From NCBI RefSeq assembly GCF_003790525.1, contig NZ_CP033635.1: a stretch of DNA of 64,000 bases. One strand, 5' to 3'. The stretch comes from Escherichia coli. GTDB taxonomy: Bacteria > Pseudomonadota > Gammaproteobacteria > Enterobacterales > Enterobacteriaceae. Below, piece by piece: positions 12,001 through 15,000 of the stretch. The number at the start of each line of letters is the position of its first letter. The first letter of the stretch is position 1. The position numbers were made by a program.

Positions 12001-15000
12001 GAGCCGAGAGCAGCAGGGCCACACTCACTGCCAGCGCGCTTTTCTTTAAAAAAGCATCACGTCTTTTAAGCATTCTGTTATTCTCCTGTATTATTACTTC
12101 ACCAGCCAGAACGGTAGTGCGGAGCAAAAATACAGTGATAAGAATCCTCTTTTATTAATTTAATAATGCCAGGAATATTATTGTGTATAATATGCGACCT
12201 CAATTTAAGCAGCAGAAAACGACTGGCATTAAAATCATTAAATTATAAACATATACAACTTTGTAAAGGTGGTTATAATAAACCTGATTACTTTAACGTC
12301 TGTATACCTGCACTGCTGATATCACAAAACAATAAAAATCCTGGTTAATATCTCTGATGATTGAATGAGAAATTCACGATGTCTGGTGAGAATTCTGTTC
12401 AAAACGAGGAATGCAGACGTACATGTGGCAGGCATGGACTTCTACCAATTTAACTTTTTTCCTTCCTTGTATTTACACATTGCACATTTTGCGCTACAAA
12501 AATTTCACGTGGCACGCACCACGTGATCCGTAGAAAAGCCTCTTGTTACGAATTTCGTAAACCGCACGTCTGTCTGGTCGTGCGGATTTTTTATCCGTCA
12601 ACTTCACATGAAACCCGCCAGAGCACTGTTTCCGGATTCAGACATCAGGCATATTATTATCCACGATGTCGTGAACAAGATCACACTTTTGCAATTCCTT
12701 TATTGATCGAAAGCAGTTAATCACGGAAATTAATTACCGGAGTGAAAGCATTTGCTATATAAACATTCCCAGAAGACATCTTCATGTTGAATATTATTCC
12801 CTTATTGACTAGCCCCTCTGACAGAATTTCAGAGGGGGTTTTTTATCAGTTTCACCATCCAACCCTGTACGCCAGAATGGTTTCACTGTCACTCAGTTCT
12901 GCTATTGCCTTTTTCATCTCCCTTTACCTTACGTTCTGCCAGAGTCTGAGCCATTTGAACAGGAGGTTATCATTGATATCGTGTTCCCGGGCAATACGGG
13001 CAACAGAGGCTCCTGGTTGCAAAACCAGTTTAACCATTTGAAGTTTAACTCATTTGAAAATGATCTGCGGGGTTCTGCGGATAATGTTTTTGCTCCATAA
13101 CAGGCGCCCACCAGTTTGAAAAGGTGGGCACCTACGTTACCAATACTGGCTTAATGGATACATACGGCGGTCGGTTCTTACGGTAAAACGACACAACCAA
13201 ACGCTTCTTATCCTGCAATGAACTGCTTTATTACCGAGTTTAGTGACCGCACAGACACTCACTTTTAAGAAAAACAGAATGGTAAACAAACTCCATGAAT
13301 TACAATAGCTCTCTGGCTGCCGCCACAATAGCTTGCGCGGTTAACCCGTACTCTCTCTGTAAAAAGTCCTGAGTTTCAACCTGGCCATACCGCTCTTTAA
13401 CCCCCACCCGACGCATGGGCACAGGACAAGTTTCTACAAGCACTTCAGCAACTGCTGAACCTAATCCATTATGAATACGGTCATGACTCCAATTAGTTGA
13501 ATTAGGGGTATAATAGCCACTTTTAAGGTTCTTTCATGGTCACAGTTAACCTTCATTGCTCCTGTTGCCAGTCCGTTCAGGTTTACCGTCACGGGAAGAA
13601 CCCAAAGGACATGATCGATTTCGCTGCCGTGACTGTCATCGAGTGCTTCAGCTCACTTACCGTTACGAGGCCCGTAAACCGGGAGTTAAAGAGCAAATCA
13701 CTGAAATGGCTTTCAACGGTGCCGGAGTTCGCGATACTGCCCGTACGCTGAAAATCGGCATTAATACTGTCATCCGGACTTTAAAAAACTCTCGCCACGA
13801 AGAATAACGTCATACCCGGTCGCTCATGCTGATATGGCTCTCATCTGCGAACTTGATGAGCAATGGAGTTTTGTCGGCAGTAAAGCGCGACAGCACTGGC
13901 TCTGGTACACGTACAACACGAAAACTGGTGGCGTTCTGGCCTACACTTTTGGCCTACGGACTGATTAAACCTGTCGTGAATTGCTGGCGCTGCTTGCCCT
14001 TTTACCATCGGTATGTTGACCACTGACGAATGGGGTAGTTACACCAGAGAGTTACCGAAGGAGAAGCATCTGACTGGTAAGATTTTTACTCAGCGCATTG
14101 AGCGCAACATCTACCTCTGAGAACCCGAATCAAACGTCTGGCCCGCAGAACTATCTGTTTCTCGCGCTCTGTAGAACTTCATGAAAAAGTCATCGGTGCC
14201 TTTATCGAAAAATATATGTTCTACTAATTGGAGTCACCACCTTCGTTTGTTTAAAGAACCTGCTGGTCCTGCCATTAATATTACCTGCTGATTGCTTCAC
14301 ATCCGGATTCCTCGCACTGCGCGCGGGTTATTGTTTCGTTTTCGGCCACGGGGTCGCCAGGGCTCTGTTTGCAGGCCATGATGGCCTGACCTGTACTGTT
14401 TCTCAGGCACTGAGATGTCCGTTTACGCCATTTGTTCCCGGATATCCTTAACCTCTGACGTTTGTTCCCTGCCCCTCTGTCTGATAACGAATACGCTCAC
14501 AACGCACAGTACTGAACAATACCGACAACAACATGTCTTACATGAAATTCGCTGTAACATCCACCGGAAAACATTTTCAGATATCGGATGAGGTACTACT
14601 TCCATTGACAGCGCGAGGTAACAAAATTGATGGTAACTCTGACCATTAACCGTAAACCGCAGGGTATTTTCAGTAAATCACCGGCAACGCCGCTGCAGGA
14701 TAAAACGGACACAGCATACAAAATGAAGGCCGGTGACCAGATACCACAGTTGAACGATAAACAGAAACCTGCTGATAAAACACCGTGGCGACATGACAAA
14801 ACGCCAGAGCAAAAACCGTAAGCGCATTATTCGTCTTGTGGAACTCTGGCCTGAGTCATTCAACCGGGAAAAAAACAAAACCACTTAAAGTGGGGATACC
14901 TGACGACCTGATACAGGATATCGCCATCCGAGAACTGGCGTTTGGCGCTGGTACATTACATGCAGCAGTGGCGTCTTATGTGCAGTCTCCGCGCTATTAC

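Follow-up and report, generated by a model that had tools for sequence, protein, structure and literature searches.

IS1 favours AT-rich targets, and adjacent deletions are classically known for this element in the gal region. Isoforms of one IS usually share at least about 95% nucleotide identity in ISfinder practice. Insertion of IS1 generates 8- or 9-bp target duplications (PMC12428005); where these are missing, the accepted explanations are adjacent deletion and recombination between IS copies (PMC11708052). The genomic island considered here has been described from the E. coli ST167 strain Sanji as a 69.2-kb insertion with an 8.9-kb sul2-strAB-tetRA-floR cluster (PMC6392093). The window, a stretch of 64,000 nucleotides of the E. 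coli contig NZ_CP033635.1, carries the same island: positions 14129-64000 are collinear with Sanji at 99.0%, and the IS junction is 100% identical. The IS1/transketolase junction is not discussed in the Sanji paper, and the word 'transketolase' has 0 occurrences in it (PMC6392093).

Positions 13479-14241 of the window are occupied by a dead IS1H-like insertion sequence, which we read with moderate confidence as marking one old IS-associated deletion, most likely an adjacent deletion anchored at the right. RefSeq already annotates the IS1 pseudogene and the transketolase fragment next to it, and the two annotations can be seen as two halves of one event. Added here are the exact 5,284-bp deletion with its genes, the IS lineage with its 97% identical intact relatives, a correction regarding the island integrase, and the apparently recurrent targeting of one site by IS1-family elements. 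The relevant features of the window are as follows.

~2608-11266: resistance cluster with an ISCR2 fragment, floR (~4402-5616), tet(A)/tetR (~6216-8171), aph(6)-Id and aph(3'')-Ib (~8751-10390) and sul2 (10451-11266).
13300-13478, minus strand: 3' remnant of tktC, a transketolase C-terminal-subunit gene (CDS remnant 13300-13476; last 58 codons plus stop), assigned by DNA identity to the gene in locus L007.
13479-14241, plus strand: degenerate IS1-family insertion sequence of an IS1H-like lineage, 763 bp (isoform identity, domains, RefSeq annotation).
13479-13501, plus strand: left terminal inverted repeat (IRL), from the repeat search, with private substitutions at 13482 and 13486.
13536-13807, plus strand: insA remnant (ATG at 13536, original stop TAA at 13805-13807), from frame comparison with intact relatives.
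13781-13789, plus strand: programmed -1 frameshift motif TTAAAAAAC (A6C), conserved and out of phase with the insA start.
13788-14227, plus strand: insB' remnant, with TAA at 13966-13968 and 1-bp deletions at ~13996 and ~14108; fragments match DDE_Tnp_IS1.
14219-14241, plus strand: right terminal inverted repeat (IRR), from the repeat search.
14242-14629, plus strand: right flank, where the conserved backbone of the CP4-like island begins (ttcgtttgtttaaag...), upstream of the frameshifted ProQ/FinO-family gene.
~14630-15138: frameshifted ProQ/FinO-family gene (RefSeq annotation, domain search).

The IS1-like inverted ends that had been predicted at 13479 and 14241 were recovered both by direct reading and by repeat search. 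They form 23-nt arms, GGTCATGACTCCAATTAGTTGAA and TTCTACTAATTGGAGTCACCACC, complementary at 20/23 positions (87%), which is far above chance level. A length of ~0.77 kb and ~23-bp imperfect inverted repeats starting GGT (GGTCATGAC... and GGTGGTGAC...) are those of the IS1 family. In hundreds of E. coli chromosomes RefSeq has a feature of 100% identical sequence, labelled 'IS1 family transposase; frameshifted; internal stop'. Its frame-repaired conceptual translation matched Zn_ribbon_InsA (1.3e-15), HTH_Tnp_IS1 (1.9e-27) and DDE_Tnp_IS1 (1.9e-68), all above the Pfam cut-offs, and the unrepaired fragments also match IS1 domains in Pfam. Since all three IS1 domains stand far above the Pfam thresholds after frame repair, the element is a true IS1-family relic and no look-alike.

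Relatedness to IS1 was likewise upheld by alignment to named isoforms, with nucleotide identities of 92.4% to IS1H, 79.7% to IS1N and 53% to IS1A (K-12). The IS1H comparison copy bears a name assigned by NCBI PGAP (NZ_CP033884, 2302075-2302838, 764 bp) and is itself a frameshifted pseudogene. It resembles the window copy in length class (764 versus 763 bp), in its ends (GGTGATGCCTCCAATTAGTTGAA...) and in the insA / A6C / insB' layout, but the window copy diverges from it by 7.6%, so that identity to this PGAP-named copy lies below the ~95% of a shared isoform, and is nearer (97%) to unnamed intact 766-bp plasmid copies. The nearest relatives are 766-bp plasmid copies in E. marmotae (97.5%), Salmonella enterica (96.9%) and E. 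albertii (96.9%). Intact copies on E. marmotae pEM148 (NZ_CP025980) and Salmonella pSA20083530.1 (NZ_CP030204) encode InsA of 90 aa and, via a -1 shift at TTAAAAAAC, InsAB' of 231 aa, the latter carrying Zn_ribbon_InsA, HTH_Tnp_IS1 and DDE_Tnp_IS1. These copies have the same termini as the window element. Relative to them, the latter has lost three bases, has acquired a stop codon and two substitutions in the IRL, and has no duplication. IS1A and IS1N have the family architecture and Pfam domains in common with the window element; IS1N, 80% identical, served as an intact frame reference. With a DNA identity to IS1A of merely 53%, the window element is not 'IS1' in the strict sense.

Both reading frames are broken, as the original prediction held for insA and insB. 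Relative to the intact 766-bp form, the insA frame is lost at codon 22 through a 1-bp deletion at ~13599-13603; in insB', one base is missing at each of ~13996 and ~14108, and a GAA>TAA nonsense change at 13966-13968 corresponds to InsAB' codon 145. There are 15 private substitutions in the element, including the two in the IRL (13482, 13486). Fragments of insB' at 13834-13965 and 14013-14117 still match DDE_Tnp_IS1. The conceptual product of the window copy is 71 aa, against 90 aa for InsA and 231 aa for InsAB' in the intact relatives. Given three 1-bp deletions and a nonsense codon, the element cannot produce either InsA or InsAB' transposase, and it is predicted to be inactive for transposition in cis. 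The insA/insB' layout and the frameshift motif are conserved and the frames are not, so that the element is, as judged from its sequence, a relic of an IS1-family member and not a functional one. Nothing suggests a present function. An 83-aa TTG-initiated ORF at 13556-13807 within the dead IS retains a full HTH_Tnp_IS1 domain (1e-30). The single-base loss at ~13996, in a C run, is common to the window copy and the IS1H copy (L004, ~519) and absent from the 97% identical intact relatives; it is probably due to independent homopolymer slippage in the two.

The 9-mers flanking the element are tatgaatac on the left (13470-13478) and ttcgtttgt on the right (14242-14250). The original prediction had the left 9-mer right and the right one, cttcgtttg, off by one base, as the initial c is where the IS ends. 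The central point stands, in that re-inspection of the flanks by direct reading, with the 9-mers compared, found no identical direct repeats and hence no target-site duplication of any length. An 8-bp target duplication, tggtaagt, surrounds the intact E. marmotae copy; as this relative is 97.5% identical to the window element, the lineage normally generates a target duplication. The 8-9-bp duplication of the IS1 family is absent from the window copy because 5,284 bp were deleted beside it.

The extent of that loss can be read from loci in which the region is uninterrupted, namely L007 (strain CLSC36), L008 (strain 64.1), L011 (a second locus in strain 104) and L015. There the order is a YadA-like adhesin gene, an old transposase fragment, tktC (954 bp), tktN (831 bp, Transketolase_N), genes for PTS IIC (EIIC-GAT), IIB and IIA, a LacI-family regulator gene, a 207-bp spacer and the ProQ/FinO backbone. 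Full-length tktC of L007, encoding Transket_pyr and Transketolase_C, lies beside the Transketolase_N subunit gene, the two constituting a split two-subunit transketolase. Truncation of a transketolase C-terminal-domain gene, as originally predicted, is evident in the window: what is left corresponds to residues 260-317 of a 317-aa Transket_pyr plus Transketolase_C protein and carries the RefSeq label 'transketolase family protein; incomplete; missing N-terminus'. Pfam returned no match for the 58-aa remnant alone, the fragment being too short; its assignment follows from the L007 gene, full-length at 954 bp, to which its DNA is 98.5% identical. The remnant is a pseudogene fragment. The left flank was found at 95-99% identity in 75 genomes, and tktC is complete in those examined (L007 and L008) as well as in L011. 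The older transposase fragment (RefSeq: frameshifted, incomplete) is at window positions 12936-13111, with the YadA-like gene on one side and the tktC remnant on the other. Its occurrence in the uninterrupted loci as well makes it older than the IS1 event, with which it has no connection.

Window position 13478 corresponds to L007 7189, and window position 14242 to L007 12474. In the window the IS stands in place of the intervening 5,284 bp (L007 7190-12473), and both breakpoints fall exactly at its termini. The missing segment comprises the 5' 775 nt of tktC (first 259 codons), tktN, the PTS IIC/IIB/IIA genes, the LacI-family regulator gene and the very AT-rich 207-bp spacer, and so includes the 5' part of the transketolase-like gene whose deletion had been proposed. 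The operon, which may correspond to the published ExPEC 'vpe' PTS locus, is intact within the 5,284 bp of the uninterrupted loci, and no second copy of it was found across the window. Its deletion would have meant the loss of a putative PTS-dependent sugar pathway. The uninterrupted alleles diverge from the window flanks by 1.3-3.6% on the left and by ~5-6.5% on the right, and are thus cousins, none of them the direct ancestor. What the element is, how it is damaged, the loss of 5,284 bp with their genes and the single configuration of the junction, described below, are all direct observations.

Of 5,426 complete E. coli genomes, 289 have the full IS/transketolase junction (2,761-bp query), and as many have the right junction when it is searched by itself. 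No genome of this set has the IS at the backbone junction with another left-hand context, and the isoform occupies one locus only in E. coli chromosomes of the set. The equality of the whole-junction and right-junction counts (289) indicates a single configuration and one historical event. The uninterrupted operon-to-backbone junction occurs in 129 genomes, and a different right-hand neighbour of the operon module was met only in the form of ISEc22 and IS1X2 interruptions. Intermediates were sought with 240-nt chimeric queries consisting of an IS end, the duplication and the uninterrupted flank, a full match to which needs a simple insertion; a simple insertion with duplication was found at either breakpoint in 0/5,426 genomes. 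In strain 104 (NZ_CP029164), an uninterrupted module with the full operon at ~910 kb (L011) accompanies an IS1-deleted copy at 1,709,354-1,710,115. By match pattern, strains MRY15-117, MRY15-131 and MDR_56 also have an uninterrupted module junction and an IS1-deleted copy at different loci. The presence of both forms in one chromosome indicates that the island modules are paralogous and could recombine.

The right breakpoint borders an ~80-bp block with 17-23% GC. The general island backbone (L009, L010, L012-L014) runs unbroken across the equivalent of 14241|14242. That position falls within a short minus-strand gene, uninterrupted in about 300 other genomes. The IS-free operon module departs from this backbone at the very nucleotide of the IS right end (within 2 nt, with a shared TG), at L007 12473|12474 and L009 6000|6001. 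In strain L73 (L022, NZ_CP033378) an independent intact IS1X2, 95.6% identical to IS1A, is present at 6233-7000 and ends 13 nt to the left of the equivalent of window 14242, with 13 nt of the AT-rich spacer retained. There is no target duplication around it (GATGTTGGT versus CAATTACAG); the backbone is kept on its right, the sequence on its left is unrelated (esterase/phytase-like, ugpB, IS110) and the operon is gone. Two IS1-family elements of different isoforms thus end 0 and 13 nt from the junction nucleotide, with cargo lost on the left in both. The position of the L73 element near the same nucleotide suggests a recurrent IS1-family target with cargo loss, for which the right side serves as the anchor; such recurrent hits at one AT-rich edge are the one mildly interesting point of the locus. 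A hot spot at this edge would plausibly explain why the older junction coincides with the IS end. That the edge is a true hot spot at which IS1-family elements reset the boundary of cargo and backbone, the older IS-free junction having itself arisen by an IS1-type event with later loss of the IS, is a further step that we regard as doubtful.

In the right-anchored adjacent deletion that we consider the likeliest history, the IS would first have landed where the AT-rich spacer ends on the right. Its left end would then have attacked the tktC site on the same molecule, an intramolecular replicative transposition that amounts to an adjacent deletion, with transposase that could have been the element's own or supplied in trans. 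This step would have removed the 5,284 bp and, with them, one of the two duplicated target sites, so that a single IS remained between unrelated flanks. The path is favoured because the right breakpoint is at the AT-rich edge and because of the pattern seen with IS1X2 in L73. Counting against it are the lack of any intermediate, the failure of the present copy to make transposase, the divergence of the uninterrupted alleles from the window flanks and the coincidence of its right end with an older junction. Known adjacent deletions and deletions by recombination between IS copies likewise leave one IS without a duplication, its flanks unrelated to each other and its termini coinciding with the breakpoints, whereas the event in the window is ancient, its IS has since died and no intermediate was found. 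An IS-mediated deletion was what the original prediction had proposed: the deletion itself is borne out, and an IS as its cause is the best inference, with intermediates in 0/5,426 genomes. We infer not only this causation but also at which end the IS first inserted, whether deletion came before or after inactivation, in how many steps the deletion proceeded and whether the element was then still active.

The alternative that survives best, possible though rather unlikely, is that two direct copies of the same isoform, one in tktC and the other at the AT-rich edge, were recombined by the host, with 5.3 kb lost and a hybrid copy left behind. This, too, is an accepted cause of missing duplications (PMC11708052), and it fits breakpoints lying exactly at both IS termini with no need for transposase at the deletion. 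It would lead one to look for single insertions, which were seen at neither breakpoint in 5,426 genomes, and the isoform is confined to one locus in E. coli chromosomes. The mismatches of the element to its relatives are evenly spread, with no signal of the mosaic pattern sought, though identical parents would leave none.

An adjacent deletion anchored at the opposite end, with the IS first in tktC (target tatgaatac) and its right end then attacking the AT-rich edge, would give an identical end product, and the edge is also plausible as the target of an intramolecular attack. We think it unlikely: IS1X2 of L73 keeps the backbone side while the left varies, which suggests that IS1 elements land first at the backbone edge, and the tktC insertion intermediate was not found in 5,426 genomes.

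More improbable is a one-step event in which the IS ends were joined to two sites 5.3 kb apart, so that insertion and deletion were simultaneous and a duplication was never made. A model of this kind has been proposed for IS5 and IS481 (PMC11708052) and predicts absent intermediates, as seen here, but missing intermediates of an old event are weak evidence. The model is not documented for IS1 in PMC11708052 or PMC12428005, and all 14 IS-plus-deletion cases of the long-term evolution experiment (LTEE) proved multistep (PMC11708052). As for a simple IS1 insertion with no deletion at all, its target duplication since erased by mutation, the element is indeed old and mutated (15 private substitutions), but this reading has next to no probability and is ruled out by flanks that are 5,284 bp apart in uninterrupted loci, where the left flank continues as an open transketolase frame, and by flanking 9-mers that have nothing in common.

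Taken as an adjacent deletion or otherwise, the event explains the missing PTS/transketolase sugar operon in a widespread resistance-bearing island whose sister islands keep the operon. The deleted-island variant is present in 5% of complete E. coli genomes, including ST167 strains such as Sanji, and its exact breakpoints are usable as a lineage marker. For the rest, the locus is an ordinary scar of mobile-element activity and carries little weight beyond bookkeeping.

The suggestion that the event also removed the island integrase region did not hold. There is no integrase within the missing 5,284 bp, and collinearity with Sanji places the integrase remnant, a tyrosine-recombinase fragment at ~34261-34420 (~34.3 kb), next to cadC (34680-36218), ~20 kb from the IS element. 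By the same collinearity, the fragment directly beside cadC marks the island end, and all of the window past it, up to 64000, is core chromosome, with cadCBA, a lysine-tRNA ligase gene, dcuSR, fumB, melAB, adiA, eptA and basRS; ARAGORN found no tRNA gene in the window that could be the island attachment site.

At the other side of the element, the resistance cluster is bordered by pap fimbrial remnants on one side and by a shortened YadA-like gene (11507-12073) on the other, and matches the 8.9-kb cluster of Sanji (PMC6392093). A piece of the chromosomal island is also carried by the IncI-gamma/K1 conjugative NDM-5 plasmid pNDM5_LS003 (L021, NZ_OP290546) at 1-12763. The piece includes papI, floR, the dead IS1 at 100% identity, an AlpA-like gene and a YfjI gene, which indicates that part of the island has moved to a plasmid or that the record is a hybrid.
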